Below are positions 1,266-49,122 of a stretch of 64,000 nucleotides of DNA, piece by piece (the stretch's first letter is position 1; every line of letters starts with the position of its first letter). The stretch is taken from NCBI GenBank assembly GCA_944350485.1, contig CALVPE010000074.1, positions 13,989 to 77,988 on the forward strand. The letters run 5' to 3'. The notes below the pieces were generated by a model, which was given only the letters and a program-made list of their open reading frames with translations, had not been told where the DNA came from and did not search any database. Position numbers and translations under genes: made by a program. Origin of the DNA: an uncultured Bacilli bacterium (GTDB lineage Bacteria > Bacillota_I > Bacilli_A > RF39 > UBA660).

Positions 1266-2561
1266 TTATTTTTTTTCTATCTCTTTAATGTAATCAAAAA
1301 CACTATCCGAAAATCCAGATATATGTATATATCCTTGCTTGTAACCAACACCCCTTTGACAAGTTGAGACATTTATGATATAACTTTTTTCTGTCATTGC
1401 ATTTGGAATGGTATCTGATGTTTGTTCGTCTGTTATAATAATAATTCTATCATATTTAGTTTTTTTGTTAATAGAATTTAATGATTCTCCTAAATTTGTT
1501 CCCCAATGTCCTTGAGAATAATTTATAGCATCTCTTAAAGCAAATCCCCTTCTACTAGGAACTAATTTTTCTATTTGACTAAAAGTCCAAATTTCAACAT
1601 ATTCACTAATTTCTCTACCTATCATAGCTAATGAACAAGCATAATCTAAACAAGAAAATTTACTATTTTTTGAAGTACATTCCATAGAACCAGATACATC
1701 AACCAAAATAAGTGTTTTTCCAGAAATTTTATCTTTATTTTTACTCATATTTTTTAAAAATACTTTTTCTATTTCACTTTCAAAATTTGGATTCATAATA
1801 CCGGCTCTTATATAGTCAATAGGTAATAGCTTGTTTAAAGATATTTTTGATATTCTATCTTTTATTAATTTTTTATCAACACCACTTCTTGAAATTCCAG
1901 CAATATTTTTTAAGAAAGCCATATCAGGTATTTTATTTTTTAGAAGTAATTTTTCCCAAGCATTCTTCTTTTTTTCTATATCACTTCCAGCTTCTGATAT
2001 TAATACTTCCCATGTTTCTGGTGTTTTTAATGTTCCATTCATTAGTTTATTTATTGCTTCTGTTGGTTTTGGATGACATAAATTAGCAATATCTACCAAA
2101 TTATATTCTGCTTTTCTATTCCATTTTGCTAATTGAAATTCATCAAATTTAGTAAAAGCTTTTGCTAAACCTTTTTTAATTGAATTTGAAAGAGAATAAT
2201 TATTAGTTTTATATAAAGCTAAAAGCTCTCCCATGTCATCTGGCCTAGTTACAATTTCTTCAATTAAATCTTTTAAACCAGTTACACCTTTTGCTAATAA
2301 ACAACTAATCATATATAATGGGCAATGTCTAAGTTTCATATCAAACTTAGCTTTTTTAATTAAATCTATTATTTTTTGATTATCATTTATTGAATTTATG
2401 AGTGTTTGTATTCTTTCTGAAACTGATATTCCATTTTCATAAAAGCCATCTTCCCATAATAAACAAGCACAAACTGTTCTTTCAAGTTCTTCAAAAGCAT
2501 TTATTTTTGAAGCCTTACCATTTTCATAAGTAGTTAAAGTATTTTTTTTGTTTTTTTTCAT
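1266..2561 (-). CDS. Ro60/Rsr-like protein: TROVE-like N-terminal region plus C-terminal von Willebrand A domain
   Basis: C-terminal vWA MIDAS motif LILVDVSGSM...IIIITDEQT. N-terminal ...RTVCACLLWEDGFYENG...LPIDYIRAGI... parallels Ro60 FLCFGSEGGTYY.../...IHPFHILIAL.../LLAVDVSASM by eye. Confidence 0.55.
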   Translation of the reverse strand: MKKNKKNTLTTYENGKASKINAFEELERTVCACLLWEDGFYENGISVSERIQTLINSINDNQKIIDLIKKAKFDMKLRHCPLYMISCLLAKGVTGLKDLIEEIVTRPDDMGELLALYKTNNYSLSNSIKKGLAKAFTKFDEFQLAKWNRKAEYNLVDIANLCHPKPTEAINKLMNGTLKTPETWEVLISEAGSDIEKKKNAWEKLLLKNKIPDMAFLKNIAGISRSGVDKKLIKDRISKISLNKLLPIDYIRAGIMNPNFESEIEKVFLKNMSKNKDKISGKTLILVDVSGSMECTSKNSKFSCLDYACSLAMIGREISEYVEIWTFSQIEKLVPSRRGFALRDAINYSQGHWGTNLGESLNSINKKTKYDRIIIITDEQTSDTIPNAMTEKSYIINVSTCQRGVGYKQGYIHISGFSDSVFDYIKEIEKK

Positions 2562-4930: not shown

Positions 4931-5371
4931 CTAATATTCAGTTTTTTTATGTATAGTTTTCCATTGATTAGCTTTTTTCCATTCAATGTAATCAAAATAA
5001 TTTCTACAACCACTTTTACCAAAAAGACCTTTCCAATATGTCATTGGTTCATTTTTTAAAAGATTAGAATATTGTTCTAATATATATAAAATATTTTTAT
5101 GTTCTACTTTTTTTCTTAATTTATATTCTTGTAAGTAGGCTTTTAATAAGTTTAACAACCACAAAACATTACCATTACTTTCTTGTAGCCATTTTTGACA
5201 AGGATGATTTTGATAACATTCTTTATATAATCTATTATCTTCAACACCCTTTAATCTAAAAAAAGTGCTTAACAATTGTGTTGTTTCTAAAATCATTTTA
5301 TTTAATAAGATATCATCTAATTCTTTTGCATTAGCTTCAAAATTATTTATATAAAACATGAATATATTCAA
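4931..5371 (-). CDS. hypothetical protein with weak resemblance to the T4 endonuclease V (DenV) pyrimidine-dimer glycosylase family
   Basis: Size about 146 aa. C-terminal PMTYWKGLFGK resembles the endoV C-terminal PTWYKYYGK. The N-terminal catalytic region is not convincingly matched. Confidence 0.3.
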   Translation of the reverse strand: MNIFMFYINNFEANAKELDDILLNKMILETTQLLSTFFRLKGVEDNRLYKECYQNHPCQKWLQESNGNVLWLLNLLKAYLQEYKLRKKVEHKNILYILEQYSNLLKNEPMTYWKGLFGKSGCRNYFDYIEWKKANQWKTIHKKTEY

Positions 5372-5462
5372 ATTAATTCCTTGTTATTTTTTATAATATT
5401 AAAACCATTTTTTTAAAAGTCAATATAATATCTATATTTTATTGTTAGTCAACTACCCCCAG

Positions 5463-6622
5463 CTAAAGCAAGGAGCTTGTCAGTTCACAGTGAGAAACAA
5501 CTTTCTCAACTCCCTGACCATAAAGGGACGTTGCATCCCCATATTTTCCATAATTGAGTATATTTACAGAAGCATTATAATCTCTATTATGAATAGTGCC
5601 ACAATTAGGACAAGTCCATTCTCTAATAGATAAATCTTTTACTTTATCATTTTTATAACCACAATGATTACAAATTTGACTAGAAGCAAAAATCTATCTA
5701 CTTTTTTTATAGTTCTTCCATACATTTTTGCTTTGTATTCTAACATACTAACAAATTTACTAAAACTACATTCCATTATCTTTTCTGCTAATTTATAATT
5801 TTTAATCATCCCACTAACATTAAGATTTTCAAGATATATAACTTGGTTCTCGTTTATAATATCTTTACTAATATTATGTAGATAATTATTTTTTATATTT
5901 TCAATTTTTTCATATATTTTTGTTAATTTTAATCTTGTTTGTTTTCTTCTATTACTTCCTTTTTTTCTTCTCATTAATTCTCTTTGTGTTCTTTTTAGTT
6001 TCTTTTTTAATTTAATTTGTTTTTTATCTTTCATTATGTTTTTATATGTTTTACCATTAGAGCAAACTAATAATTCCTTTATTCCTAAATCAATTCCAAT
6101 TTCATTTTTAGTAATTGATAAATATTTTCTATTTTCTTCAACTAATATAGAAACAAAATATTTGTTAGTTGGTGTTTTTGATATTGTAACACTTTTTATA
6201 TTTCCTTTTACTTCTCTATGTTTTTTTATTTTAACATATTTTATTTTTGGCAATTTTATTTTATTATTTTGTAATTTTATATTGTTATTGACATTGTTAG
6301 TTTTATATGTTTGCTTTCCATTTTTACTATGAAATTTTGGTAATCTTTGTTTTCCTTTATAAAAATTCTTATAAGCAGTCTCTAAATCAATTTTAGCATT
6401 ACATAATGCTAAACTATCAATATCTTTTAACCATTTATATTTTTCTTTGTAATATGATAAAGAAAATAATTTTCTCTGTATTCCATATTCTTTATATTCA
6501 TTATAATTATAATTACTTTGTTCTAAATATTTATTATATATAAATCTAGTAGCACCAAAACATTTCTCAAAATATTCTTTTTGAGTTTTATTTGGATATA
6601 ATCTAAATTTATATGCTAACAT
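5463..6622 (-). pseudogene. tnpB: tnpB (TnpB/OMEGA RNA-guided nuclease family) interrupted by a 1-nt frameshift in a homopolymer run
   Basis: N-terminal MLAYKFRLYPNKTQKEYFEKCFGATRFIYNKYL is canonical TnpB. The ORF in the track stops at 5639. One T added to the T5 run (plus-strand A-run around 5688-5692) restores ...[52 protein letters not shown]..., the zinc finger plus RuvC-III, ending at 5463. Confidence 0.8.
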
Positions 6623-7080
6623 TATTTTTCCTGTTCTTCTATATACTTTACTAATTTTTGTAAACTAATATTTCCACTTGTTGCTAAATAATAACTATTG
6701 CTCCAAAAATGTTTACCCCATAACTTATCTGCTAAATATTGTTTATATTTATTTCTTATATATTTACTTGTTGACCCTTTTATAGTATTTATATATTTTT
6801 TTATGTCTAATGTAGGTTTTGTTTTTATCATTATATGTATATGGTCTTTATCAACTTCTTGTTCTATAACTTCAACATCAAAATTTTTTGATAAATCAAT
6901 TATTTTTGTTTTTAAATCATCTACAAGTTTATTATTATCAAATATTTTTTTTCTATATTTTACTACTAATATCAAATGATATATTAGTAAAAAAACAGAA
7001 TTACAACTTTTATCTAATTTATTCATATTTATTTTTTTTGTTATACTAATATTATAATAACCAAAAATATAAAAAGTCAA
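6622..7080 (-). CDS. tnpA: IS200-like Y1 (HuH) transposase TnpA
   Basis: HIHIMI (HuH motif) and SNSYYLATSGN. Size 152 aa. Confidence 0.85.
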   Translation of the reverse strand: MTFYIFGYYNISITKKINMNKLDKSCNSVFLLIYHLILVVKYRKKIFDNNKLVDDLKTKIIDLSKNFDVEVIEQEVDKDHIHIMIKTKPTLDIKKYINTIKGSTSKYIRNKYKQYLADKLWGKHFWSNSYYLATSGNISLQKLVKYIEEQEK

Positions 7081-7263
7081 GAAAATATTTTATTTTTAGC
7101 AATTTATCCCCCACTTAAAAGCAGGGGAATTCTTGCTATCTTACATTTAAATTTTTAATACTTTTATAAACATATTCTAAAAAGCTTATAAGCAATAAAA
7201 TTGGAATAACAAATAATTGCAATATAAATTCCAATATATCTATTATATAATGTATTATCTTTT

Positions 7264-7758
7264 TTAAATCTTCTTGCATATATTAAAATTATTAGTAATA
7301 ATTATTTCATCTTGTTTATTATATTTAAAATAATCTGATAAAATTTTTAAAGCTTGTTTACTATTAAAAACTAAACCTTGTTCTTCATCACAAGACAAAC
7401 CTACTAAAATACATCCCCTTGAATCACATCTCCAACAGTTGCCTTTTTTATCTTTAAAATATCTAACACTATTTCCGGCATGTATTCTAATATATTTTCT
7501 TATATTTTTAACATTATGATTATCATCATATTCTATACAGGCATCTAAACCATTATTTTCAACTTTTACACATTCACCAAATGTATAGCTTTTAAAATAT
7601 TTTCCAATATATTTACCTTCTGGTATTGATGAAATATTATTTTGATTATTTTTATAAGGTAATTCCAATGTAAAAATATTTACTTTTTTTTCACCTAAAT
7701 TGTTTATTTTTCCAATTATAAAATTATTATTAATTATATATCTATCTATTTTTATCAT
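7264..7758 (-). CDS. YkuD/L,D-transpeptidase-fold-like protein (possible cell-wall-active enzyme)
   Basis: RIHAGN...(about 20 aa)...SRGCILVG reproduces the L,D-transpeptidase His ... S-x-G-C-[IV] catalytic arrangement. Own sigma70-like promoter at about 7775-7815. Confidence 0.35.
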   Translation of the reverse strand: MIKIDRYIINNNFIIGKINNLGEKKVNIFTLELPYKNNQNNISSIPEGKYIGKYFKSYTFGECVKVENNGLDACIEYDDNHNVKNIRKYIRIHAGNSVRYFKDKKGNCWRCDSRGCILVGLSCDEEQGLVFNSKQALKILSDYFKYNKQDEIIITNNFNICKKI

Positions 7759-7837: not shown

Positions 7838-8314
7838 CTATTTTTTACCTTTATTTACCTTTTCAAGATTTTTTAAATATAAATATTTTTGTTTTCTTAA
7901 TTCTTTTTGTTTTTTTAAAATATTTTTTTCATATTCAGTTTTTTCCCTTTTTATTTTAGGCTTATGAATTAAATTTTTATTTTTTGTATTAATAGTTATT
8001 TTTTTTCCAGAAAGTTCCTGATATTTATTAATCATAAATTCATCAATAGTCAATATATTATCTTGTAAAAAATCTTTAATATTATTTGTATTATTAATTA
8101 TTTCTGGTTCTTTTAAAAAACCATCATGTATTTTTCTATGACAACACATACAAACTGGCAATATATTTTTTTCATCCCAGCGATATAATAAATTTGCTCT
8201 TCTAATTATATGATGACCTACAACATTTTTTGTAGTTCCACAATAATAACATCGTTTTTTACTAGCTCTTTCTTGTATTATTTGATCTAATTTTTTCATT
8301 AAATTTTTATTCAT
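7838..8314 (-). CDS. HNH endonuclease
   Basis: CYYCG...VGHHIIRR...CMCCHRKIH (Cys4 plus HNH). Confidence 0.8.
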   Translation of the reverse strand: MNKNLMKKLDQIIQERASKKRCYYCGTTKNVVGHHIIRRANLLYRWDEKNILPVCMCCHRKIHDGFLKEPEIINNTNNIKDFLQDNILTIDEFMINKYQELSGKKITINTKNKNLIHKPKIKREKTEYEKNILKKQKELRKQKYLYLKNLEKVNKGKK

Positions 8315-8321
8315 AATATTC

Positions 8322-10511
8322 CTATTTTTTGCATTTCCATGAAAATAAAGCTTTTCCAGTAATAATATTTCCGGTAACTCTATTTATTAAACAATCTTTA
8401 AATCCTTCTTCTTTTGCTAATATATAATCTTCTGCTTTTCCAAATTTATCATAAGTTTTTGTACAGTCAACAAAAATTGGTTTTTTACCTTCTTGAAATC
8501 TTACAAGTCTTCCAACAGATTGTATTAACAAAGACAAAGACATCATTTGTCTAGCATTTATTATACAATCTAAACTAGGGCAATCAAAACCAATATTTAA
8601 AGCATTAACATTAACTAATATTTGTTTATTATTATTTTTAAATTTTTCAATTATTTCTTGTCTTTGTTTTTTAGGTGTATCTCCATAAATTTCCATAACT
8701 TCGTAACTCTTTTTTCTTAAAGTATCACATATTATATTAGCTTGTTGTTTACAACTAGTTATTATAAGAATCTTATTTTTTATAGGAAAAAATTCTTCAA
8801 CTGCTTTTATTGTATTATCTATTCTATCTTGTCTAGTAGTATATTTAACTATACTTTCTTCCGTATAATCACATCCTGTTGAATTTACTTGTAATTGTGA
8901 CAAATCAAAACCATTACTATAATCTATATATTCTGGTTTCATAATATAACCAGCTTCCATTAAATCCTTTAATTCCATTTTATAAACAATAGATCCAAAG
9001 AAAAATGGATGAATACGATTTAACATCATTAGAGAACCTGTATAGTATTTTTCACCACCATCATAACAAAATCTATTTACAAGACGATACGGGGTAGCGG
9101 AAAAAGAAAGTACTCGACTACATTTTATTTCTCCAAAAAATTTTGAATACATACCATTTGTATTTTGAGGATTTACTGTATGACAATTACCAGAAATAAA
9201 AGTCAATCCATCACTTCTAACTACTATTTTATGATTTGGGACTTCTACACAATAAACGTAATTATTATAATCTTGGATTATTTGTTTATTCGCTGCCTGC
9301 AAACTTCTATAATCGCTATCAAAAAAAATTACTCTATATAAAGTTTTTCTATTGTCGCCTCTTTCTCTTTGCTCCATTACTGTTCTATATCCAGCTTGTG
9401 TAGCTATTGCATTAACAAAATCTACATTATCTTTTATAATAGAAGAATAACTTTTTGGCATTTCATTTTTTCTAGTTCCATCCCATAAACATATTTCTTC
9501 TATAAAATCTCTTGCTCTATCATACCCCATATTTATATTAAAACATTTAGATAAATATTTTGCTCGTTTATTTAAAAAATCATTACCTAATAAAATATGC
9601 CATGCTTCATATCCTTCTCTTGTTATATTTAATTGTTTAATATTTGTCATGTTTTTTGTTAATAATTTCCATCTATCTTTTTTTCTTTGTTTTTTTAAAG
9701 AAATACTATAACGACCAACATCTTTTTTATTACGGTTAAAACTAACTGAACCATCAGCTTGTAAAGCAACCAAGACTCTTTCAAAATCTGTAAGTAAAAC
9801 ATTATTTCCTGTCCCCTTTCCTGCACAAATAAGTTGATTTTTACTAGAAGCACTATGTCCGACTGTTAAATCTTTTACTAAACAATTATTTATTGTATAT
9901 TTGTCCGAACTAATTTTTCTTCTATAAACTTGATTATGATTTGGCGTCATTAAGCAACCTCTGATATTTTTATAATTAGAGAAATTTATTTTTATCATTT
10001 CACCATTATGCTTCCTTTTTATGTATCTCAATGGTTTCACAAATTCTATTTTACCATCATCATATTGCGCAACTAATTCTGTTTGGTCTAAATCTTTAAA
10101 TTTTTTAAAACCTCTATCAGTTAATATTTCTACACCACCATCAAAACACTCATCTATTATGCAATTTTTTACATCTTTAAATAATTCTGGATGTTTATAT
10201 GCAGATTGTATAGTAGAAAATATAACATTTTTATCTGTTTCTTTTCTGTCTTTTCCAGCAGAAAAAACACTAGCTTCATAACCATAACTTTCATATTTAG
10301 ATAAATTTTGTTCTAATATTTCTTGTGATGGTTGAAATACTATTGTTTTATCTTGTAATTCTTTTGCTATATTTGCTATTACTATTGACTTTCCAAAAGC
10401 TGTACATGCTTGCATTATAATTGGTTTTTTAGAATTTTGTAAATAGTATAAGCCAGTTTTAACAGCAACTTTTTGATATTCTCTTAATTGTATCATTTTT
10501 TTTCTTTCCAA
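8322..10511 (-). CDS. SF2 DNA helicase (DECH box) interrupted by an intein
   Basis: Walker A QACTAFGKS, motif II IIDE|...|CHT, motif III LSFSATP. A 321-aa insertion lies exactly inside the DECH box. Confidence 0.75.
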   Translation of the reverse strand: MERKKMIQLREYQKVAVKTGLYYLQNSKKPIIMQACTAFGKSIVIANIAKELQDKTIVFQPSQEILEQNLSKYESYGYEASVFSAGKDRKETDKNVIFSTIQSAYKHPELFKDVKNCIIDECFDGGVEILTDRGFKKFKDLDQTELVAQYDDGKIEFVKPLRYIKRKHNGEMIKINFSNYKNIRGCLMTPNHNQVYRRKISSDKYTINNCLVKDLTVGHSASSKNQLICAGKGTGNNVLLTDFERVLVALQADGSVSFNRNKKDVGRYSISLKKQRKKDRWKLLTKNMTNIKQLNITREGYEAWHILLGNDFLNKRAKYLSKCFNINMGYDRARDFIEEICLWDGTRKNEMPKSYSSIIKDNVDFVNAIATQAGYRTVMEQRERGDNRKTLYRVIFFDSDYRSLQAANKQIIQDYNNYVYCVEVPNHKIVVRSDGLTFISGNCHTVNPQNTNGMYSKFFGEIKCSRVLSFSATPYRLVNRFCYDGGEKYYTGSLMMLNRIHPFFFGSIVYKMELKDLMEAGYIMKPEYIDYSNGFDLSQLQVNSTGCDYTEESIVKYTTRQDRIDNTIKAVEEFFPIKNKILIITSCKQQANIICDTLRKKSYEVMEIYGDTPKKQRQEIIEKFKNNNKQILVNVNALNIGFDCPSLDCIINARQMMSLSLLIQSVGRLVRFQEGKKPIFVDCTKTYDKFGKAEDYILAKEEGFKDCLINRVTGNIITGKALFSWKCKK
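9186..10148 (-). other. Intein (321 aa) with LAGLIDADG homing-endonuclease domain, inserted in helicase motif II
   Basis: Begins at C of CFDGGVEILTDRG and ends ...FISGN followed by +1 Cys of CHTV. Block B has T..H in CLMTPNHNQ, the LAGLIDADG-like motif is VLVALQADGSVS, and block F is YVYCVEVPNHK. Excision restores IIDECHTV. The penultimate residue is Gly rather than His. Confidence 0.7.
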
Positions 10512-10954: not shown

Positions 10955-11008
10955 AATAAAAATTAATATTTTTTACAATAATAAAATATTATATTTAAAA
11001 ATCAAGTG

Positions 11009-11224
11009 TTAATTAAAATAATTTTTTAAAGCTTCTTTATCTTGATTAGATTTTTTTAGAGCATTATCATATTTAATGATACATTCTCCATAAGTGTTAT
11101 TTTCACAATCAACATATATTTTTTGCAATCTTATATAATTTAAGGGAATATCATTATGTACAAAATTATGTTTACAAGATACTAATAAAATTAAAATAAA
11201 TAAAAATAAAATATTTTTAAACAT
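11009..11224 (-). CDS. putative o-spanin (outer-membrane lipoprotein)
   Basis: Signal peptide with lipobox LLVSC. Small mature domain. Overlaps the preceding coiled-coil type II membrane protein by 8 nt. Confidence 0.45.
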   Translation of the reverse strand: MFKNILFLFILILLVSCKHNFVHNDIPLNYIRLQKIYVDCENNTYGECIIKYDNALKKSNQDKEALKNYFN

Positions 11225-11525
11225 CTTCTTTTAATATTTTTAATAAATCTTCACTAACTTTTTGATTAACACAAAAATTTTTATCATTTTTTTCTAATTT
11301 ATTAAGCTTATTTTTTAATACATTATATCTATTAATATAATATTTATTTTCTTCTTCACTTTTATTAAAATCTTCTTTTAATATATTATTTTTTTCTTGA
11401 ATATATAATAAATCTTCTTGTAAATTTCTATTAATATATTGTTCCATTTTTATTTTTTCTTTTAACAAAGATATATAAATAATTAAACATAATATAATAC
11501 TTATAAACAATAATTTTTTTATCAT
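11217..11525 (-). CDS. putative i-spanin (N-terminal TM plus periplasmic coiled coil)
   Basis: N-terminal TM LLFISIILCLIIYISLL followed by a charged heptad-like region. Paired with the lipoprotein gene downstream. Confidence 0.45.
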   Translation of the reverse strand: MIKKLLFISIILCLIIYISLLKEKIKMEQYINRNLQEDLLYIQEKNNILKEDFNKSEEENKYYINRYNVLKNKLNKLEKNDKNFCVNQKVSEDLLKILKEDV

Positions 11526-11526
11526 T

Positions 11527-11949
11527 TTATATAAAAAATTTTTGAATAATAATCATTAACACTGCACCACCAGCACCTGATAAAAAATTATAAAATATTT
11601 TTATATTTTTTTTAGTAGTAGTAATATCTTTTACAAAATCTTTAATTTCATTTATAGCCCCCTTTAATTCCTTAATTTCATTAATTAAACCTTTTGAATA
11701 ACAGCCATCTCCTTTTAAAAACATATTTATTTGTTCTAAATTTTTTTCTATTTGTTCTATTTTATGTTTTTGTATATTTTGTTCATCTTCTATTTCTTTT
11801 ATATTTTCATATATTTTAGATTTGCAATCCTTATTTATCATATTTTTATTTAACATATCAGCTTGTCTCTCCAAAATTTCATTGTGGTTATTGGTTGTTT
11901 TTACAAATGTTTCTACAACTTGTTTTAAATTATCTAATGTTTCCTTCAT
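11527..11949 (-). CDS. hypothetical coiled-coil protein with C-terminal TM segment
   Basis: C-terminal FLSGAGGAVLMIIIQKFFI. Confidence 0.35.
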   Translation of the reverse strand: MKETLDNLKQVVETFVKTTNNHNEILERQADMLNKNMINKDCKSKIYENIKEIEDEQNIQKHKIEQIEKNLEQINMFLKGDGCYSKGLINEIKELKGAINEIKDFVKDITTTKKNIKIFYNFLSGAGGAVLMIIIQKFFI

Positions 11950-12635
11950 TTTCTAAATTTCTTTATTTTTAAAATTAATAAATAAATACAAGGGAATATA
12001 TATTCTGACTTATATTCATATCCTTTAATTTGATTTAAAACATATCTTAAACTTCTTAAACAATTGAATCTAAAATAAAATGTTCTTTTTTGTCTAGCAT
12101 GTTGTGATAAAAGATTTTTTTCCCAATCTCCATTTAAATTTTTAAAATTAAATCCAGTATCTATAATTAAATATTTTTCTTTTAAATAATTTAGAGTTTT
12201 ATCAGTAAAAGGTATTTTTTGTAAAGTTTTAGCTTCATATCTCATCTGATATATATTTTTATTTATAATTAAACCTGCAGAACTATATGATAGACCAAAT
12301 ATTGATAATATAAATTGTTTTATTTTTTTAGGTTTATAAAAAATAATAAGTACATTATTATTATTTATTTCATCGCTTTTTATATAAGAAAATAATTTAC
12401 AAAATAAAAAATAAAATAAAAATAAAGATTGTATTATATAATATATAGAATAATTAATATTAAATATATAATTTAAAAAAGAAAAAAATATATCTATTAT
12501 AAAAAATATATTTAATGCTCTTAATATAAAATATTTATACTCTAATTTTAAATAATTATCAATTAGAATATATAATAAAATTATATAATATAAATTTTCT
12601 ATAATAAAATTAAACATTACTTCTATTGTCATCAT
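11946..12635 (-). CDS. hypothetical polytopic membrane protein
   Basis: Several hydrophobic segments in the N-terminal half. Confidence 0.35.
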   Translation of the reverse strand: MMTIEVMFNFIIENLYYIILLYILIDNYLKLEYKYFILRALNIFFIIDIFFSFLNYIFNINYSIYYIIQSLFLFYFLFCKLFSYIKSDEINNNNVLIIFYKPKKIKQFILSIFGLSYSSAGLIINKNIYQMRYEAKTLQKIPFTDKTLNYLKEKYLIIDTGFNFKNLNGDWEKNLLSQHARQKRTFYFRFNCLRSLRYVLNQIKGYEYKSEYIFPCIYLLILKIKKFRK

Positions 12636-14510: not shown

Positions 14511-15863
14511 TTAAGCTTTTTTAATAATAGTTAAACTATCAAATCCTTTTGCAGCACCACCACATCTTTGTCTCAACATATAATGAATTATTTCATTATT
14601 ATTTGCATAAGGGTTAAATTCAATAGTTCTTCCTGTTCTTTGAACAAAAGTGTAAGCTTTTGAGAAATTACCTACATAAACTGCTTTTGAACCGGTATCA
14701 GTAAATTTAGGACAATAGATAGATGTATAAACATTCATACCATTTATCATATAAACTGCCCCTTCTAATAACATATTAGGTTGAACTAATGGTCTACCTT
14801 GTGAATCTTTAACATCAAGTATTTCTGCAAGTGTCATAGGATTCATAACAACAACATTATTATTTGTTGACATAGTAATGTTAGCTTTTACAATAGCACT
14901 AATTAATTCTTCTGCATCATTTGCAACCATTGTTTTAAATTTACCAACAACATAAGGACTTTCTTTCTTTAATTCAGCTTCTGATAATTCATCATATTGA
15001 GAAATTCCTTTTGGTTTTCCTTGTGTAGCATTACCAGTAAATAAAGCTCTTTCAACAGCATTTGTTAAACTCTCATCAAGTAAAGGATATAAATATGTAT
15101 AAATGTTACCATTATAATCTTCTACTAATGTTCTTGTTAATGGAACAGATCCTTTAACAATTGATGTTGGAATAATTATTTTACCTTGGCTAACATTTGA
15201 TGTTTTATCAGAACCAAATTCATCTTCCCAAAAACCTTCATTAGAAGCATCAGAAGCTAAAACTTCTGCTTGGTTTGTAGAAGTAGACACCTTTTCAACT
15301 AAATCATATAAACATTTTTTAGTCTTATTTGCGGTATAGTCTGGTAATTTTTTAGCTGGTGTGATACCAAAACCACCATCACTTCCTACATATGTACTTT
15401 GTGCTTGTGCTTTTATATTTAAATCTAATACTGGAAATTGTGTAGATGTAACATCTTGCATAGCAGATTTAACATACTTTTTTTCCATATCTTCATTAGC
15501 TAAATTCATACTTTTAGCTAACATTTTAGCACATTTTTCAGCATTTTCAAGATATTCAGATTTTATTTCTGCTTTACCAGATGCAAAATCTCTTAATACT
15601 TGATCAAGATTTGATAAATATTTTTTTTGTATTTCATCATTGCCTTGATCATTTTTAATAGAAACTTTATAAAAATCGCTAATTTGTCTAGCATTTTCTA
15701 AATTTTCTTTTTTCAAATCATTGATCTCTTGCAATGCTTCATTATATTTTTTTTCCATATCAGCATTTTTTTGTTCTAATGCTTCAATTTTTTTTACATT
15801 GTCTTCTTTGAAGCTTTTTACTTCATCAACAATATTTTTTATATTTGTATTGATTTCTTCCAT
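14511..15863 (-). CDS. HK97-fold major capsid protein with N-terminal coiled-coil (delta/scaffold-like) domain
   Basis: About 100-aa charged coiled-coil, then a typical Phage_capsid core (...NPMTLAEILDVKDSQGRPLVQP...VYVGNFSKAYTF...). Follows the prohead protease. Confidence 0.7.
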   Translation of the reverse strand: MEEINTNIKNIVDEVKSFKEDNVKKIEALEQKNADMEKKYNEALQEINDLKKENLENARQISDFYKVSIKNDQGNDEIQKKYLSNLDQVLRDFASGKAEIKSEYLENAEKCAKMLAKSMNLANEDMEKKYVKSAMQDVTSTQFPVLDLNIKAQAQSTYVGSDGGFGITPAKKLPDYTANKTKKCLYDLVEKVSTSTNQAEVLASDASNEGFWEDEFGSDKTSNVSQGKIIIPTSIVKGSVPLTRTLVEDYNGNIYTYLYPLLDESLTNAVERALFTGNATQGKPKGISQYDELSEAELKKESPYVVGKFKTMVANDAEELISAIVKANITMSTNNNVVVMNPMTLAEILDVKDSQGRPLVQPNMLLEGAVYMINGMNVYTSIYCPKFTDTGSKAVYVGNFSKAYTFVQRTGRTIEFNPYANNNEIIHYMLRQRCGGAAKGFDSLTIIKKA

Positions 15864-15866
15864 AAT

Positions 15867-16979
15867 TTACTCTTTATTTTTTAATAATGAACTTAAATTT
15901 TTTAAATATTGATTAAATTTTTCTAACTCCTCAGGAGTTTTATCATTCTCATCAAGAGAATTTTCACTTGAAGATTCCTGTAAATCTTCTAATTCCTTTT
16001 TTGGTTTTTTTCTATTAGTACCACAAGCTTTTAATTCAGCAAGTCTACTAAAGAAAGTTTTAAAACCAGAATTCGTTAAACCAGACTTTTTTAAAAATCT
16101 TTCACAATCCTTAATGGTAAAGTTTTTAATAATATTTTGTTGATTTTCATAAGGTGAAATATAACTATTATCATTAGTGTTTTTTCTTATAATATCAAAA
16201 AGTAAATTTATTTTTTCTTTTAATTTTAATCTTTCATTTTCACTAATATTTAATGTATCAATATTATCTTTTCTTGAAAATTCAATAAGAGATTTAATAT
16301 TTATTTCTGGTTCACCTTCATTATTTATATCAATGAATAAACCATATTTTTTTTCACCATTAGCTAATAAATAAAAATCTTCATCCTTAAATTCTTCATT
16401 TTTTAAAATATTATTTAATTTTTGTTCAATATCTTTTTTATTAATAATTTTTTCTGGTGAACTTACTTTAATTTCATTAAGATTAATATTTTTAACATTT
16501 AAAATTTTTGCACTATCATTTGCTGGAAACATAACTAAACTTATTTCATGTAATTCAATATCTAATAATTCTCTTGTTTTATTGCTTTCGTTATAGAAAT
16601 CTTTTTTAACAATATATCCTATTGACATTTTTTTACATACACCAGCTTTTATTAAATTATAAGCTGTTCTTCCTTGTGGAATATTTAATAAAATTTTACC
16701 TTTTACAAATAATCCTATTTCATCTTCAAATATACTATTTATATCAAAAAATCCTATTGGATTATCAGTTTCATGAGACCATAGCATAGGTATATTTGTA
16801 TCATTTTTATTTTTTCTATTTTCTATGCTTTTTTGAAAAGCACCCTTTTTTACAACATCTCTATAACTATCTATTACTTCAAAAACAGAAGCATAACCTT
16901 CAAAATATCCATATTTGTCATCTTCTGTAAATTGTTTTATTTCAAAATTACTATCTAATTTTAATTCTTGCATTATCAA
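15867..16979 (-). CDS. HK97-family prohead protease (S78) with C-terminal extension
   Basis: GYASVFEVIDSYRDVVKKGAF...PMLWSHE signature. AGACTTCCATT motif about 55 bp upstream. Confidence 0.8.
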   Translation of the reverse strand: MIMQELKLDSNFEIKQFTEDDKYGYFEGYASVFEVIDSYRDVVKKGAFQKSIENRKNKNDTNIPMLWSHETDNPIGFFDINSIFEDEIGLFVKGKILLNIPQGRTAYNLIKAGVCKKMSIGYIVKKDFYNESNKTRELLDIELHEISLVMFPANDSAKILNVKNINLNEIKVSSPEKIINKKDIEQKLNNILKNEEFKDEDFYLLANGEKKYGLFIDINNEGEPEINIKSLIEFSRKDNIDTLNISENERLKLKEKINLLFDIIRKNTNDNSYISPYENQQNIIKNFTIKDCERFLKKSGLTNSGFKTFFSRLAELKACGTNRKKPKKELEDLQESSSENSLDENDKTPEELEKFNQYLKNLSSLLKNKE

Positions 16980-17150: not shown

Positions 17151-18017
17151 TTAATCTAATGATGAAGTTTTTTCCAATTCATCTATTGTAGGTATATCTG
17201 GTTTTTTTTCTTCACTTATTGTTATAAGTCTACCTTCTTCATCATAATATTTAGCTTTATCATCATACATTCCATTATCTATATCATTAAGCATTTCTAA
17301 ATCAACATCTTTTATAAACCATTTTCCCAATCTTCTTACAACTGTTTTTTTAATCATTTCATCTTCAAAATCTTTCCAAAAATTTGTAAGTTCTTTTTTC
17401 TTAGTATCATAATTAAAATATAAAGGAGCTAATTTTAAAATCTCTTCATATGTCATAACTACTATTTGTGGTTGTCTTCCGGTATTTTCTTTATATCTTA
17501 ATACAGCTACACCATATAATTTTTTTGCATTTTTTTTATCAATACTAAAATTTGGCTTATAAGTAAAATGATTTCCTTTATCATCCGAATAGTATTCAAA
17601 TTGATCTCCTTCATAAACTATAAAAGGTTCTATATTATCTATATCTTTATCCTTTTTAGCCAAATAAAGATAGGCTTGATATCCTATAATTAAACTACAT
17701 AATAATGTGCCGTTCTTATCTTTATATGGAACTAAATAAGCATAATGTTTAGAATCAACTGGTAATTTTAAATTAGCACTAGTTAATATTGAATATATTA
17801 TACTTTTTGTAGAGCATTTTAATAATTTATCATTGGTTCTAATTGTATTCATAACACCTGATATATATTTATTTATATCATTATTTTTTCCATTAATAGA
17901 ACCATACATAATATCACCAATTATATTTTTAAAATCTTGCGAATTTAAAGCATCTCCTATTGGCATATCACATATTTTTTGTAATACAGATTTTTTATTT
18001 TCTTGTGTTTCTAACAT
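17151..18017 (-). CDS. RecT-family single-strand annealing protein
   Basis: ...HYAYLVPYKDKNGTLLCSLIIGYQAYLYLAKK.... Partnered with an upstream PD-(D/E)xK exonuclease. Confidence 0.65.
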   Translation of the reverse strand: MLETQENKKSVLQKICDMPIGDALNSQDFKNIIGDIMYGSINGKNNDINKYISGVMNTIRTNDKLLKCSTKSIIYSILTSANLKLPVDSKHYAYLVPYKDKNGTLLCSLIIGYQAYLYLAKKDKDIDNIEPFIVYEGDQFEYYSDDKGNHFTYKPNFSIDKKNAKKLYGVAVLRYKENTGRQPQIVVMTYEEILKLAPLYFNYDTKKKELTNFWKDFEDEMIKKTVVRRLGKWFIKDVDLEMLNDIDNGMYDDKAKYYDEEGRLITISEEKKPDIPTIDELEKTSSLD

Positions 18018-18034
18018 TTTTACTCCTATATTTA

Positions 18035-18925
18035 TTAATAATCACTAACAATTTTAAATTCTCTATACATATTAGACATTAATTTAACTTCTTTAAAATA
18101 TTTAAAAACATCTAAATCTTTACCGCTAAAAAAATTATATAAATCTCGTTTACATTTATATAAAATTCCACAATCATCATCTAATAAAACTTCATCATTT
18201 TCTATTTTAAAATTTACATCTCTATTTTTACCAAAAACATAATCTATTGCTCTATCTACTGACTGCATGTCATATTCAAAAATTTGATATAAATCTTCAT
18301 AATCTTCTTTTGTAGATTGTACTAAAAAATAGAAATGTTTAGGATATGTTTTGTATTTTAAATAACATAATTGAGCATATACTGCATTTTGTATATCATG
18401 TCCATTATATACATTTCTTTTTTCCCATTTATCTAAATCTTCACTAGTAGTTTTATAATCAATAATAATTATATCCCCATTAGATAATTTTTTTATAGAA
18501 TCAGTTTTTCCTTTTAACCAAAAGCCATCTCCTATATCAACTATAAAAGGTTTTTCACTAATACCATTTTTTAATAAAGCACCAACAAATTTATCTTTAT
18601 ATAAATTATTTATCATTTTTTTAGCATGTTGATAATCATTTAAACTGACTATTTCTTTTGTTTGCTTATTTTTCCAATCTTTACCTTCTTTTGTTCTAAA
18701 ATCTAAATTATCTAAATTAACAATATAATTTTCTTCAAATTTTTTAGGTTCTAAAAGTAAACAATGAGCTAATGATCCAAAGTTAGTTGATTTAGTATCT
18801 ATTTTAATAGCTTCACTATTATATACACTTCTTTTCCAAAAATGATAAGGAGATTCATCATAATCTTTTAATTGACTAGCAGAAAGTGCAGGATAGTCAT
18901 AATAATTTTTATCACTTATTTCCAT
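18035..18925 (-). CDS. PD-(D/E)xK recombination exonuclease (lambda Exo/YqaJ-like)
   Basis: ...DIGDGFWLKGKTDSI...IIDYKTT (D ... E/D-x-K arrangement). Own sigma70-like promoter at about 18950-18985. Confidence 0.6.
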   Translation of the reverse strand: MEISDKNYYDYPALSASQLKDYDESPYHFWKRSVYNSEAIKIDTKSTNFGSLAHCLLLEPKKFEENYIVNLDNLDFRTKEGKDWKNKQTKEIVSLNDYQHAKKMINNLYKDKFVGALLKNGISEKPFIVDIGDGFWLKGKTDSIKKLSNGDIIIIDYKTTSEDLDKWEKRNVYNGHDIQNAVYAQLCYLKYKTYPKHFYFLVQSTKEDYEDLYQIFEYDMQSVDRAIDYVFGKNRDVNFKIENDEVLLDDDCGILYKCKRDLYNFFSGKDLDVFKYFKEVKLMSNMYREFKIVSDY

Positions 18926-21532: not shown

Positions 21533-22153
21533 ATGACAATATTAATAAAAAATAGATTTAATAATTTATCAATGGATAATTTAATAATTAATGATTATAA
21601 TAAAAATTTAATTACATATTTAAAAGATTATAAAAAAAATATTGAAGAAAAAATAAATAATTACGAAAATATTATTTTAACTGGAAGTGTTGGAAGTGGA
21701 AAAACTTTTATTATGAGAAGTTTTTTTAATGATATCCAAAAAATTAAAATTAAAAGACAAAAAAGTTTTTATTATAATCAAATAGAAGAAGAAGATTATA
21801 TTTCTTCTATGTATGTAAATATGTATGATTTAATAAATGAATTAAGAAAAGAATATAAAGGTGAACATGTTGATAGTTTATTATTTACATGTGATTTGTT
21901 ATTTATTGATGAAATAGGTATACAATTTTGTACAGATGCAGAAAGACAAATACTTTTTAAATTAATAAATTATAGATATGAAAATTTTAAACCAATATTT
22001 TTAATTTCAAATCATCCTTTAAGGTCCACCAATGAAATTAAAGGTCTTTATTATATTTTAGGTGATAGAATAATGGATAGAATTTGTGATTGTAATTGTA
22101 AAGTATTTTGTTTTAATAATATAGAATCAATGAGAAAAAAATGTTTGAAATAA
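21533..22153 (+). CDS. DnaC/IstB-like helicase loader ATPase
   Basis: Walker A GSVGSGKT and Walker B LLFIDEIG. Confidence 0.7.
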   Translation: MTILIKNRFNNLSMDNLIINDYNKNLITYLKDYKKNIEEKINNYENIILTGSVGSGKTFIMRSFFNDIQKIKIKRQKSFYYNQIEEEDYISSMYVNMYDLINELRKEYKGEHVDSLLFTCDLLFIDEIGIQFCTDAERQILFKLINYRYENFKPIFLISNHPLRSTNEIKGLYYILGDRIMDRICDCNCKVFCFNNIESMRKKCLK

Positions 22154-24180
22154 AATTATATGATATTGAATGTGAACAAGTATTATTAGGATGTTTAATA
22201 TTAAATTCTGAAACATATTTTAAAATAAATTCAATAATAAAAAGTGAGTATTTTTTTGAAAGTGCTCATAAAGATATTTTTATTTTACTAAAAAATTTTT
22301 ATGAAAATGATAAGGTACAAGATTTAAAATCATTATCAGGCGAAATAAAAAATATTTTAAGAAAACATCATTATACAGATGATTATTTAAAATGCTTATT
22401 AAATATGGGAGCAGGAATAATTGATGTAGAAAGTTATTGTAATATAATTAAAAATTTTTATTTAAAAAGACAATTGAAAGATTTAGAAGAAAAAATTGAA
22501 TTAGAAATTAAAAAAAATACTAAAGCAGAAGATATATATGATAAAATAAAAAACAATTTAGAAAATATAGGAGAACAATCAAAAGAAGAACAATATACTT
22601 TTGATAATGCTATGGATATATGTGCTAAAAGAATATTGGATATAGAAAATACTATTAATAATAAAAATGAACCTGATAATATTATAAAAACTAATATTAT
22701 AGATTTTGATAGAAAGTTAGGTGGAATTTTTAGAAAAAAATTATTTGTTTTAGCTGGAAGGAGTTCGTCGGGAAAAGCGTTACCATTAGATACTAAAATA
22801 TTAACTAATAAAGGATGGATAAAAAATAAAAATATTAAAATAGGTGATAAAGTTATTGATCCATTTGGTAAAGAAGTTGTAGTTAATGGTGTTTTTCCAC
22901 AAGGAAGAAGAAGATGTTATAAAATATTTTTTGAAGATAGAATTATAGAAGCGGATAAAAATCATTTATGGGAGATATTTTTTGAAGATGAAATAGAACC
23001 AAAAATATTAAGCACTAAACAAATATATAAAATATTAAAAGATAAAAAAAATAATAAAAAGTTATGTATAAGGCTTTTTTGTGGAAAATATGGGCTTAAT
23101 AATAATAAAAGTATTTTATTTAAAAAATATGAAGCTAGAAAAAATTTTTTATTTAATTATCTTAATAAAAGAAAATATGAAATAAAAAGTTATAAAAAAT
23201 CTTTAATATTGCAACAATTAGCTTTTAGTTTAGGCATGAAGTGCCATATTATTTTTGATAAAATAAATAAAATATATAAAATAGATATTTATAAAAATAT
23301 TTCTAAAAAATTATATATTAATAAAATAGAAAAATCAAATTTTAAACATACACAATGTATTAGTGTTGATAGTAATGAACATCTCTATGTAATTCAAGAC
23401 TATATTGTTACTCATAATACTACACTTTCTTTACAAATTGCATTAAATGTAGCTAAACAAAATAAAAATGTTTTATTTTTTTCACAAGAAATGTGTTCTG
23501 AAGAGCAGGGAGATAAAATATTATCTAATGTTGCACAAATTAATTCTTCAAATATAAGAAAATCAGATGTTACTTATGAACAAATACAAAAAATGAAAAA
23601 TAATATGGAAGAAATAAATAAATTACCATTATATTTTAATGAAAAGTTAGGTATTAGTGGTGATTATGTAAGAAATGTTATTAAAAATTTTGAAAAAAAA
23701 GTCGGTAAAATTGATTTAGTTATTATAGATCACTTGCAAATAATGAGAACAGAAGATAATCAAAATAATAGGGTATTAGCTCTTGATAAATTATCTATGG
23801 ATTGTAAAAATATAGCAAAAGAATTTGATTGTGGCATGATATTGTTAAGTCAATTATCAAGAAAAACAGAAGAAAGAGATGATCCACGACCACAATTATC
23901 CGATTTAAGAGAAAGTGGTGGTATTGAACAAAATGCGGATGTTGTAGTTTTTATTTATCGGGAAGCTTATTATACAGAAAGAAAACTAAATGGGTTATTA
24001 GAAACAGATCCAAGATTCACTAGTTTATCTAATCAATTGAAAACTCAAAAAAATCAAGCAGATTTAATAATACAAAAAGATAGGGGGGGAAATTTAGGAA
24101 ATATAAAATTATATTTTGTCCCTGAATTTTCTTATTTTTCCGATATATATACTAAATATCTAGAAGATGCAAAAAAATAA
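22141..24180 (+). CDS. dnaB: Replicative DNA helicase DnaB interrupted by an intein in the P-loop
   Basis: N-terminal ECEQVLLGCLILNSE. P-loop LAGRSSSGK|...|TTLSLQIALNVA split by a 214-aa insert. C-terminal ...IIDHLQIM...ESGGIEQNADVVVFIYRE. Confidence 0.85.
   Translation: MFEIKLYDIECEQVLLGCLILNSETYFKINSIIKSEYFFESAHKDIFILLKNFYENDKVQDLKSLSGEIKNILRKHHYTDDYLKCLLNMGAGIIDVESYCNIIKNFYLKRQLKDLEEKIELEIKKNTKAEDIYDKIKNNLENIGEQSKEEQYTFDNAMDICAKRILDIENTINNKNEPDNIIKTNIIDFDRKLGGIFRKKLFVLAGRSSSGKALPLDTKILTNKGWIKNKNIKIGDKVIDPFGKEVVVNGVFPQGRRRCYKIFFEDRIIEADKNHLWEIFFEDEIEPKILSTKQIYKILKDKKNNKKLCIRLFCGKYGLNNNKSILFKKYEARKNFLFNYLNKRKYEIKSYKKSLILQQLAFSLGMKCHIIFDKINKIYKIDIYKNISKKLYINKIEKSNFKHTQCISVDSNEHLYVIQDYIVTHNTTLSLQIALNVAKQNKNVLFFSQEMCSEEQGDKILSNVAQINSSNIRKSDVTYEQIQKMKNNMEEINKLPLYFNEKLGISGDYVRNVIKNFEKKVGKIDLVIIDHLQIMRTEDNQNNRVLALDKLSMDCKNIAKEFDCGMILLSQLSRKTEERDDPRPQLSDLRESGGIEQNADVVVFIYREAYYTERKLNGLLETDPRFTSLSNQLKTQKNQADLIIQKDRGGNLGNIKLYFVPEFSYFSDIYTKYLEDAKK
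22777..23418 (+). other. Intein (214 aa) in the DnaB Walker A motif. It has a non-nucleophilic Ala1, ends ...VTHN, and the +1 residue is Thr
   Basis: Starts ALPLDTKILTNKGW (block A), ends ...DYIVTHN|TT. Excision gives GRSSSGKTTLSLQ. Ala at position 1 plus Cys in block F (TQCISVD) suggests a class 2/3-type intein. Its size leaves room for only a reduced endonuclease domain. Confidence 0.75.
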
Positions 24181-30667: not shown

Positions 30668-31281
30668 TATTTATCTCCTTTAATTATTTTTTTATCTAAA
30701 AATGTTATTTTAACATAACCATCACCACCTTTTCCACCAAATCCAGGGCTACTTGCTGTATTAGCATATCCACCACTACCACAGTATGTGTTTGGAATAA
30801 ATTCACTATATACAGTTGGATTTGCTCCAATATTTTTTGTAGCATTTATTCCTTTTTTTGCATTTTGTGGCTGTAAAATAGCATTACTATTTAAAATAGA
30901 TATATCTCCCCCTTCACCTTGTCTATATACAGATCCCTCTCTATTTGCTTGTCCGCCAAATCCACAACCACAAATAATTAAATTTTCTATTAAAGAATTA
31001 CTTCCTTGTTTAGCATTATTATTTCTATTACCATTACCACCACCAGCACCAACTTGTATATTATAAATTCCCGCATTTAAAAAAGCATTTCCTATATATA
31101 CAGCAGCTGAACCACCAGGGCTATTAGCACCACCACCACCACCACCAACTATTTCTATATAGTATGTTCCTCTGACATATATTTGTAATTGATAAGTTCC
31201 AGGAGTTCCTTGATCAAAAATAACTTGATTTTTTTGATATTTTGATATTCCGCCTAAATTATTTAAATGACTAATAAACAT
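30667..31281 (-). CDS. glycine-rich tail-fibre-associated protein
   Basis: Long GGGGG/GNG repeats (VGGGGGGANSPGG...GAGGGNGNRNN...GSGGYANTASSPGFGGKGGDG). Confidence 0.4.
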   Translation of the reverse strand: MFISHLNNLGGISKYQKNQVIFDQGTPGTYQLQIYVRGTYYIEIVGGGGGGANSPGGSAAVYIGNAFLNAGIYNIQVGAGGGNGNRNNNAKQGSNSLIENLIICGCGFGGQANREGSVYRQGEGGDISILNSNAILQPQNAKKGINATKNIGANPTVYSEFIPNTYCGSGGYANTASSPGFGGKGGDGYVKITFLDKKIIKGDK

Positions 31282-45345: not shown

Positions 45346-45897
45346 TTACCAATTTTTTAAAGTTATTATACTTGCATTTGACAATTTTTTTTCTTCATTA
45401 AATTTTTTAATAGCATTATATAAGCCATAACCATAACTTGTTCTACCATTAATTAAATATCCTTTATTATCTCTATTTTTAAATAAATCTCTTTTATTAG
45501 AAACATATATTTTTTTGCCATTTTTTAAATATTCTGATTTATATTTTGCTCTTTCCGATGTATCTTTAAGACTAATATTAAAGTTTATGGTTTTATTATT
45601 ACTATCACTTCTTAAAAATGTAACATCTGATTTTAAACCTCTATATGTTCCTATATCACTTTTTCTTGACCTAATTGAGTTTGGTTCTCTTCCAATAACT
45701 TCTCCTAATGCTGATCTTCTATATCTAAATTTTATATATTTTTTTGTTATTAAATTTCCGGTTTTTTTTCCATGAATCATTTCATCTTTTGTAATTTTAA
45801 GAGCATTATTAGCAATATTTTCTGCTTCTATTCTAGCTACTTTCTTAATTTTATCATTAATTTTTTTTCTAAAAACAGACAGTTTTACTTGCTTCAT
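45346..45897 (-). CDS. hypothetical virion protein (head completion / tail terminator-like position)
   Basis: Position only. Confidence 0.3.
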   Translation of the reverse strand: MKQVKLSVFRKKINDKIKKVARIEAENIANNALKITKDEMIHGKKTGNLITKKYIKFRYRRSALGEVIGREPNSIRSRKSDIGTYRGLKSDVTFLRSDSNNKTINFNISLKDTSERAKYKSEYLKNGKKIYVSNKRDLFKNRDNKGYLINGRTSYGYGLYNAIKKFNEEKKLSNASIITLKNW

Positions 45898-48894: not shown

Positions 48895-49122
48895 TTATTT
48901 TTTACTTATTATTAAAACAGAAATTATAAAAAATATAAACATTAGAGAATATTTTAAAATATCAAAATATGTACTTGCATTTAATAAAAAAAATGGTGTA
49001 TAAATCATACATGCAACACAAATAATAATACATATATTGCTAATATTTTCTAATATTTTTATTATAATATTTTTTAAAAAAAGATAAAATTTATTTAAAA
49101 TCATTGATATTTTTTTAAACAT
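48895..49122 (-). CDS. small hydrophobic protein between terminase and portal
   Basis: Two TM-like segments. Confidence 0.3.
   Translation of the reverse strand: MFKKISMILNKFYLFLKNIIIKILENISNICIIICVACMIYTPFFLLNASTYFDILKYSLMFIFFIISVLIISKK

Follow-up and report, generated by a model that had tools for sequence, protein, structure and literature searches.

Why does the tnpB gene of an insertion sequence (IS) in a phage lose its reading frame, and what does the GC-rich DNA at the 3' end of this gene encode? These questions arise from a 64-kb stretch of DNA (positions 13,989 to 77,988 of contig CALVPE010000074.1, from an uncultured Bacilli bacterium), which we will call the window. An original prediction, which was made from the letters of the window, placed an IS200/IS605 element with the genes tnpA and tnpB at 5450-7140, within a phage. 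The element is indeed present: its TnpA and TnpB proteins pass the curated thresholds for their families, the window encodes phage structural proteins, and near-identical copies are found elsewhere. Comparing three copies that lie in different contexts refined its limits to 5448-7146. Judging by its sequence, it is an IS200/IS605-family IS of 1,699 bp on the minus strand. Its parts are in the order left-end hairpin, tnpA, tnpB, and omega-RNA with the right end, which is the layout of IS608 and ISDra2. Taken as a whole, it is very probable that this is an IS200/IS605 copy with a real, inactivating deletion in tnpB and with an omega-RNA module.

The frameshift in tnpB

The first gene of the element, tnpA (6622-7026, minus strand), encodes a Y1 HUH single-strand DNA transposase of 134 amino acids, counting from the ATG. 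The protein matches Y1_Tnp from Pfam (PF01797, E = 2.4e-36) and NCBIfam's model for IS200/IS605 transposases (NF033573; 121.9 bits, with a cut-off of 55). Its HUH motif is HIH, and it has a C-terminal tyrosine region (SYY). As predicted, tnpB is encoded in the same orientation, and its ATG overlaps the stop codon of tnpA (TAATG at 6622).

As encoded, tnpB (5639-6622, minus strand) specifies 327 amino acids: 311 native residues and then 16 out-of-frame residues, with a TAA stop codon at 5639. This open reading frame (ORF) holds the HTH, WED, and REC regions as well as D178 and E265 of the RuvC domain. The frame is lost at a run of five T's in the coding strand (5688-5692; five A's in the plus strand), and three-frame translation found that the TnpB sequence continues from this run in the -1 frame. 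That 3' part of the gene (5463-5690, minus strand) contains the zinc finger (C318, C321, C338, and C341), the RuvC-III aspartate (D348), and the C-terminal tail, and it ends with a TAG at 5463-5465. TnpB as encoded has neither an intact RuvC D-E-D triad nor a zinc finger, since D348 and the four cysteines are in the -1 frame. We rejected the possibility that the C-terminal piece is translated separately: the -1 frame lacks ATG, GTG, and TTG codons except at its very end.

According to the original prediction, one extra T would repair the gene and recover the zinc finger. This was correct on both counts: adding one base gives a protein of 386 amino acids that ends at the same TAG and contains CNHC...CPNC, and intact relatives have six T's at exactly this place. 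The RuvC triad and the zinc finger are restored only after one T is added, as in the copies at loci L003 and L152. The repaired protein has all three Pfam domains (HTH_OrfB_IS605, OrfB_IS605, and Cas12f1-like_TNB), and it scores 425.1 bits for NF038281 (IS200/IS605 RNA-guided endonuclease TnpB, IS200_TnpB; cut-off of 425) and 319 bits for NF040570 (cut-off of 100). Residues 3-357 align with the TnpB of ISDra2 (PDB 8bf8, 8exa, and 8h1j; E = 1e-79).

By protein search, the truncated product of 327 amino acids (P0002) is identical on six public contigs. These contigs represent the same phage (99.9-100% nucleotide identity over the region) and derive from two or more assembly projects, with BRZ_* and ONAT22-1 names; L151, which is also the same phage, is an independent Logan assembly. 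The run has five T's in the window and in all five of the other contigs that cover the site (L001, L002, L004, L005, and L151), and it has six T's in L003. The intact relatives of 386 amino acids are P0001 (97% identical, at locus L003) and P0121 (at loci L152 and L153, in the same 90% cluster). Because six assemblies have five T's while the closest relatives have six T's and an intact ORF, the window's allele is a one-nucleotide deletion and not a sequencing error. The frameshift is a real and derived deletion that is fixed in this phage lineage. The original prediction had offered three causes for the frameshift (sequencing error, decay, or slippage-dependent expression). Of these, decay through a recent inactivating deletion fits best, sequencing error can in practice be dismissed, and slippage is not favored.

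Since TnpB is truncated after residue 311, with loss of the zinc finger and of D348 from RuvC, the product of 327 amino acids should be nuclease-dead, and this copy of the element should have lost its homing or retention function. TnpB reportedly processes its own mRNA into omega-RNA (this is attributed to Nety et al. 2023), and the truncated TnpB may also fail at omega-RNA maturation.

There are further signs of decay. Using L152 as the outgroup to polarize the changes, the window's lineage has 26 private changes, with 11 non-synonymous and 8 synonymous, as compared to 4 non-synonymous and 9 synonymous changes in the lineage of L003. This excess of non-synonymous changes suggests relaxed constraint in the window's lineage. 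Three of the window-specific non-synonymous changes are in tnpA (Q93K, D110N, and G133E), and D110N adjoins the region of the catalytic tyrosine. Also, a private C-to-T change at 5474 replaces C-G with T·G in the hairpin of the right end. As DNA, the right end folds with an energy of -3.2 kcal/mol in the window (z = +0.85), versus -6.7 kcal/mol in L003; as RNA, the pairing at 5474 is kept as G·U. Together, the non-synonymous excess and the weakened DNA hairpin suggest early decay. Our reading is that this copy was recently inactivated and that, of its parts, just tnpA and the RNA module still appear unimpaired.

The probable omega-RNA module

As the original prediction noted, the last 200 bp of the element are GC-rich: 5442-5640 is 36.7% GC. 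The GC content of 5448-5560 is 44.2%, as compared to a mean of 22.3% (standard deviation of 5.7%) for segments of 113 nt, and this value is matched but not exceeded in the 64 kb. (The sole other 113-nt stretch at 44% GC, 31037-31149, is at the 3' end of the ORF 30667-31281.) We propose that 5448-5560 (minus strand) is the core of an omega-RNA (or reRNA) scaffold. Made up of three helical modules, it shares sequence with the final ~30 codons of tnpB and reaches the right end of the element. The scaffold may extend upstream to ~5650. When folded as RNA, 5448-5680 does better than every one of 200 shuffled sequences (z = -3.1).

Comparisons to relatives were decisive for this structure. The TnpB encoded at L147 is only 54% identical to the window's protein, yet the 3' ends of the two genes align base for base. 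Among just three sequences, compensatory double changes are found in 7 of the 32 predicted pairs; for instance, GAGAAA/UUUCUC is replaced by AGUCAG/CUGAUU. A covariance model (R1), built from these three sequences and run over 143 sources, matches the window once, at 5448-5560. It also identified ~50 homologous loci, and these are nearly always on the strand of tnpB, where the match either adjoins the end of the tnpB match or extends over it.

We then computed pairing statistics from an alignment of 31 sequences, with controls in which the partners were slid by 1-3 columns. Standard pairs are found in 87.6% of cells, as compared to 40-46% in the controls, and the number of cells with double changes is 234, as compared to 36-66 in the controls; the alignments were fitted to R1, which inflates these figures somewhat. 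Double changes are seen at all 32 pairs. G·U pairs outnumber A·C pairs by 161 to 23, which implies that the structure has been selected as a sense-strand RNA and not as DNA. Five substitutions separate the window from L003 at predicted pairs, and each of them keeps the pairing, as G·U. Four of these alter the tail of TnpB (M365T, S366F, C368Y, and P384S), and the fifth is just past the stop codon of tnpB. This pattern indicates that selection at the tail of tnpB is on the RNA and not on the protein.

Given the covariation, as well as the position and strand of the matches to the covariance model, the suggestion of an omega-RNA-like 3' end holds up, and the identification of the GC-rich module as an omega-RNA scaffold is strongly supported by comparative evidence. 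The scaffold does not belong to an Rfam family: at the gathering thresholds, Rfam had no match anywhere in the window, and a permissive search added just one weak match, to HEARO, on the opposite strand.

In the established architecture of TnpB systems, the guide is the DNA that lies 3' of the right end. On this basis, we predict that the guide segment is 5428-5447 (minus strand), where the RNA would read through into the phage flank (TAACAATAAAATATAGATAT). A second target for this guide was not apparent in the window, as matches were at the level expected by chance (27 versus 18 ± 4.6, and 20 versus 12.6 ± 3.6). One such match, with TTTAA and then TAACAAAAAAATATAT, is at 45734-45754 (minus strand), inside the ORF 45346-45897; it has two mismatches to the predicted guide across 16 nt and is within chance expectation. 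tnpA, tnpB, and the RNA module each occur just once in the window.

Ends, target site, and relatives

The left end (7027-7146, minus strand) has a two-tier imperfect hairpin at ~7097-7138, with an inner stem (CCCC...GGGG) at 7108-7126 and an outer stem (GCAA...TTGC). As DNA, it folds with an energy of -9.1 kcal/mol (z = -2.48). The right end (5448-5476, minus strand) has an imperfect hairpin at 5455-5476, CTCCTTGC-TTTA-GCTGGGGG, followed by the terminal TAGTTGAC. Similar hairpin sequences had been predicted at both ends, and the two hairpins are indeed related and have the same orientation. They are subterminal, there are no terminal inverted repeats, and both stems covary in relatives; for instance, the outer stem of the left end changes from GCAA/TTGC to GCAT/ATGC in L147.

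The close copies end with ...GGGGT(A/G)(G/A)TTGAC, and the last base is 5448 (the window's terminus is ...GTTGAC). Four copies share ...TTGAC, after which their right flanks are unrelated (TAAC, TCAA, or ATTA, and AATA in the more distant L147), and this places the right end at 5448. More distant relatives terminate with ...GTTCAC or GTTCAA.

To the left, similarity to L152 begins at TTTAAATGT, and similarity to L003 begins at TTTAA and then ATAGCAAG (TTTAA plus ATAGC). We predict that the target site, and the transposon-adjacent motif (TAM) of TnpB, is 5'-TTTAA-3' at 7147-7151 (minus strand), which is outside of the element and immediately 5' of its left end. TTTAA is found 16-20 nt 5' of the foot of the left-end hairpin in the window, L003, L152, L147, and L073, and TTTAT is found there in two distant relatives (L080 and L023). 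The upstream flanks of these seven loci are unrelated to each other. Both TTTAA and TTTAT are reported to be the TAMs of related TnpB or TldR proteins from Firmicutes (bioRxiv 10.1101/2023.11.30.569447). No target-site duplication is visible: the right flanks are unrelated to one another, and the left flank does not recur in them. Insertion would be 3' of TTTAA, by the single-strand "peel and paste" route.

The insertion site is 77 nt upstream of the gene for a phage DNA-binding protein and is in the tail of a predicted ORF of 47 amino acids (7136-7279). The original prediction put the element between two phage genes. It is upstream of a phage gene, but the site is not cleanly intergenic, as the left end supplies the stop codon of the predicted ORF: TTTAA is within its last codons, and its TAG is part of the ATAG of the left end. 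The gene that is directly downstream of the element (4931-5371, minus strand; 146 amino acids) matches just positions 1-99 of the 309 positions of PHROG 624, "DNA binding protein." Since the IS is upstream of the start of this gene, it did not cause the truncation.

A sigma70-like promoter had also been proposed at about 5400-5430. We do not support this: the site matches the consensus at only 9 of 12 positions, and the region holds 21 such matches, as compared to 21.2 expected from shuffled sequences. The region's best promoter-like site, TTGACT-18-TATAAT at 7080-7051, matches 11 of 12 positions. It precedes tnpA within the left end, L003 has kept it, and it is a plausible promoter for tnpA and tnpB. 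Separately, the last bases of the right end and one base from the flank form TTGACT, with TATTAT 16 nt downstream (5425-5452, minus strand; 10 of 12 positions). Such a hybrid promoter could read outward to the phage gene that starts at 5371, but it is indistinguishable from chance matches in AT-rich DNA.

We did not find a version of the phage that lacks the IS: exact look-ups of two neighboring proteins gave only contigs that are consistent with the IS, and IMG/VR contained no relatives of these two proteins. From the inferred ends, the IS-free junction would be TTTAA|TAACAATAAAATATAG (TTTAA|TAACAAT). We also considered L147 as a clean empty site, and rejected it because the corresponding region holds an extra gene as well. 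In this 84-kb contig (BRZ_CT NODE_496), genes that are homologous to 10998-11120 and 11214-12616 of the window are separated by a DUF2828 gene and by a tnpB-only element (2289-3767 of L147). That element encodes a TnpB of 416 amino acids (54% identical) and has similar ends and a similar RNA module. Nearby, on the other strand, are fragments that match the Pfam domains for TnpA and HTH_OrfB.

The elements of the window, L003, and L152 are 95.2-97.2% identical over ~1,702 aligned positions. The three close copies (the window, L003, and L152/L153) are in three phage-like contexts with unrelated flanks: in L003, genes for portal and baseplate J proteins adjoin the element, and in L152, a YopX gene does. 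Finding the same element at different sites implies that it is mobile, and it also defines the ends. The tnpB-only element of L147, which has 69% nucleotide identity, is at another site of a related phage. All four elements are in contigs with low GC content (21-25%), and the contigs of L003 and L147 share genes with the window's phage.

Beyond these, we did not find close copies. The best amino acid identity was 52% in GTDB's species representatives, ~45% in IMG/VR, and ~48% in JGI metagenomes, and none of these collections yielded a copy from the host. A megablast search of 5300-7300 against INPHARED phages gave no match. The IS lineage appears, from these comparisons, to circulate among related phages.

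How would an intact element work? Going by relatives that have been studied, TnpA would bind the two subterminal hairpins and would excise or insert the top strand. The 3' end of the tnpB transcript would fold into the omega-RNA scaffold and would read through ...GTTGAC into ~16-20 nt of the flank, which would be the guide. TnpB with this omega-RNA would cut the joint of TTTAA and flank, either where excision has emptied it or in a sibling genome that lacks the IS. Recombination with a copy that bears the IS would then restore the element.

Alternative readings, phage setting, and known systems

If the frameshift were an artefact of sequencing or assembly, then the phage would truly have an intact tnpB of 386 amino acids. 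In favor of this, just one base is affected, in a homopolymer (a classic site for errors), and the downstream frame is fully open. But five T's are seen in all six assemblies listed above, from at least two projects and including the independent Logan re-assembly of raw reads. Also, the names and coverage tags of the contigs suggest short-read assemblies of the SPAdes type, for which a run of 5 nt would not be error-prone. We consider an artefact to be extremely unlikely. Another idea, which we consider very unlikely, is that the five-T allele yields low levels of full-length TnpB, by -1 ribosomal frameshifting or by transcriptional slippage, and that the shift is regulatory. Other families of IS, such as IS1 and IS3, commonly use programmed -1 frameshifting, and a -1 shift on AGA-UUU-UUG would give the exact consensus (...DRFFASS...), with the C-terminal 75 codons still open. 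But the closest relatives have six T's and one continuous ORF, which makes the shift a derived state rather than a conserved one, and among the 120 best homologs listed, there is no frameshift-type truncation besides the window phage's own allele. Furthermore, a run of five T's is short for efficient slippage by the polymerase. We rejected a programmed frameshift as the main explanation because the productive overlap (~18 codons, from the TAG in the -1 frame to the TAA in the 0 frame) lacks a slippery heptamer (X-XXY-YYZ) and because the upstream run of A's (A-AAA-AAA, or A7) leads into the -1-frame TAG.

Other alternatives concern what the truncated protein and the 3' region are for. In some of the described TldRs, the C-terminus is truncated such that RuvC and the zinc finger are ablated; some TldRs are encoded by phages, and one clade uses TTTAA (bioRxiv 10.1101/2023.11.30.569447). 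The window's truncated TnpB shares these features, and it has lost exactly the zinc finger and RuvC-III while the RNA module is intact, so it might have been co-opted as an RNA-guided DNA binder or repressor. That is exceedingly improbable, given that tnpA and both transposon ends are kept, the frameshift is very recent and leaves a junk tail of 16 residues, and the allele is confined to one near-clonal phage population. Moreover, the guide is the adjacent flank and has no second TAM-flanked target of significance in the window, and the non-synonymous excess suggests relaxation rather than new selection. This is not the combination that defines TldRs, which are nuclease-dead, lie outside of transposons, and have guides that target promoters. 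As for the GC-rich 3' region, it might be conserved only as single-stranded DNA for recognition by TnpA, and not as RNA. The terminal hairpin (5455-5476) resembles the hairpin of the left end and is surely a binding site for TnpA, and R1 weakly matches some left ends (2289-2369 of L147 and 389-482 of L073). Yet the two upstream helices (~5479-5544) have no counterpart in the left end and covary strongly; the strand-specific excess of G·U over A·C is expected for RNA and not for DNA; and the window's changes in the right end weaken the DNA hairpin while keeping the RNA pairing. A role in DNA only is thus very improbable. The most elaborate alternative is a joint claim: that TnpB and its omega-RNA act as a gene drive between phages, and that the truncated allele is an early stage of TldR-like domestication. 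In such a drive, TnpB would cleave co-infecting phages that lack the IS at TTTAA plus the flank, and the phage's own RecT and exonuclease would do the repair; the fixed truncated allele might still bind the intact omega-RNA and so become an early RNA-guided DNA binder. The IS lineage was found only in related and very AT-rich phages, at three or four sites, and was absent from the bacterial collections that we searched. We give the joint claim only a slim chance of being right.

We return to the reading that we prefer, of a recent inactivating deletion in an IS200/IS605 element with an omega-RNA. Several points weigh against parts of it. The contigs with five T's show that the deletion is real and not that it is maintained by selection, as all of them are 99.9-100% identical to the window. 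After the frameshift, the -1 frame has stayed open for ~75 codons, which fits a recent mutation and leaves room for low-level frameshifted expression. The contrast between non-synonymous and synonymous changes involves small counts, so it gives just a hint of decay beyond the frameshift. With no IS-free version of the phage found, the left boundary and the TTTAA target are inferred, from three copies and more distant relatives, and the first ~6 nt after TTTAA in L003 are unlike those of the other two copies. The omega-RNA, the length of the guide, and the TAM are likewise deduced from comparative sequence analysis and from the literature on related systems.

The rest of the window (22.3% GC) is the very AT-rich genome of a tailed phage, with annotated genes for structure and replication. 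These include a large terminase (49115-51688, minus strand), a portal protein (47588-48892), a tape measure protein (38667-41162), a tail sheath protein (42390-43934), a major capsid protein (14511-15863), a prohead protease (15867-16979), and RecT with a PD-(D/E)XK nuclease (17151-18925). The phage also encodes DnaB.

Some of these proteins contain inteins or may do so. The large terminase (857 amino acids) has an intein: it matches Hom_end_hint from Pfam at residues 100-387 (E = 7.7e-18), and its homology to terminases is restricted to residues ~394-850. A helicase of the SNF2/DEAD type (8322-10511, minus strand) has an insertion of ~330 amino acids (residues 110-443), which matches a PHROG that otherwise matches intein-bearing proteins (E = 5e-25); its match to Intein_splicing is weak. 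The DnaB helicase (22141-24180, plus strand; 679 amino acids) has a gap of ~320 amino acids between its N- and C-terminal domains, which may be a third intein. The phage also encodes a protein similar to Ro60 (TROVE-vWA-like; 1266-2561, minus strand), an RNA ligase (55170-56225, minus strand), and a free-standing HNH endonuclease (7838-8314, minus strand). The Ro60-like gene hints at a partner similar to Y RNA, and Rfam at the gathering thresholds gave none.

For annotation, the gains are exact ends, a predicted TAM (TTTAA), a validated model for the omega-RNA scaffold, and the state of the nuclease gene. The related phages that share the element also carry inteins and an HNH gene, and they are a good natural setting for asking if TnpB homes between phages. 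The intact alleles (with six T's) and the broken allele (with five T's) differ by 3%, so they form a ready natural contrast. Also, P0001 and P0121 are compact, AT-rich TnpBs of 386 amino acids with a defined RNA, which makes them candidates as editors.

Among known systems, ISDra2 from Deinococcus radiodurans also has tnpA and then tnpB, co-oriented and overlapping, and its TnpB has the D-E-D triad and the CxxC...CxxC zinc finger, as in our repaired protein. In both elements, a structured RNA overlaps the 3' end of tnpB and reaches the right end. The TAM of ISDra2 is TTGAT, in contrast to the predicted TTTAA. The host also differs (a bacterial chromosome for ISDra2, versus a phage with 22% GC), tnpB is frameshifted here, and the window's RNA scaffold has a sequence without an Rfam family.

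The window's element also resembles IS608 from Helicobacter pylori, which is the model for peel-and-paste by TnpA. Both have a Y1 HUH TnpA and imperfect subterminal hairpins in direct orientation, without inverted repeats, and in both, insertion appears to be 3' of a short, AT-rich motif and not to duplicate the target. In IS608, left cleavage takes place ~19 nt 5' of the foot of the hairpin, and TTTAA is 19 nt upstream of the foot in the window. The motifs are different: TTTAA and ...TTGAC, versus TTAC and ...TCAA in IS608, with the comparison for our element made from sequence alone.

The predicted TAM and the phage context are shared with the Firmicutes clade of TnpBs that use TTTAA or TTTAT and with their TldR relatives (Wiegand et al., bioRxiv 10.1101/2023.11.30.569447). 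As in some TldRs, the truncated product lacks the zinc finger and RuvC-III. In contrast to TldRs, the gene is in an intact-looking transposon with tnpA, the frameshift is fresh, there is no associated cargo gene, and we did not find a conserved target.

Finally, the first ~33 nt of the consensus for HEARO, the omega-RNA of IscB (RF02033; GUCAACUACCCCC...CUUG), resemble the reverse complement of the right end from 5448 onward. This match (5448-5580, plus strand) is on the strand opposite tnpB, its score of 13.8 bits (E = 7.3) falls short of the gathering score of 83, and an iscB gene is lacking, so the module is not a member of this family. At most, the resemblance reflects a shared IS200/IS605 end hairpin. 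The match would make sense if IscB elements share the end hairpin and it is read from the other strand, though it is far below the threshold. Overall, elements of this kind are well understood, and the window's element is a previously uncatalogued member and not a new system; it does not challenge current understanding.

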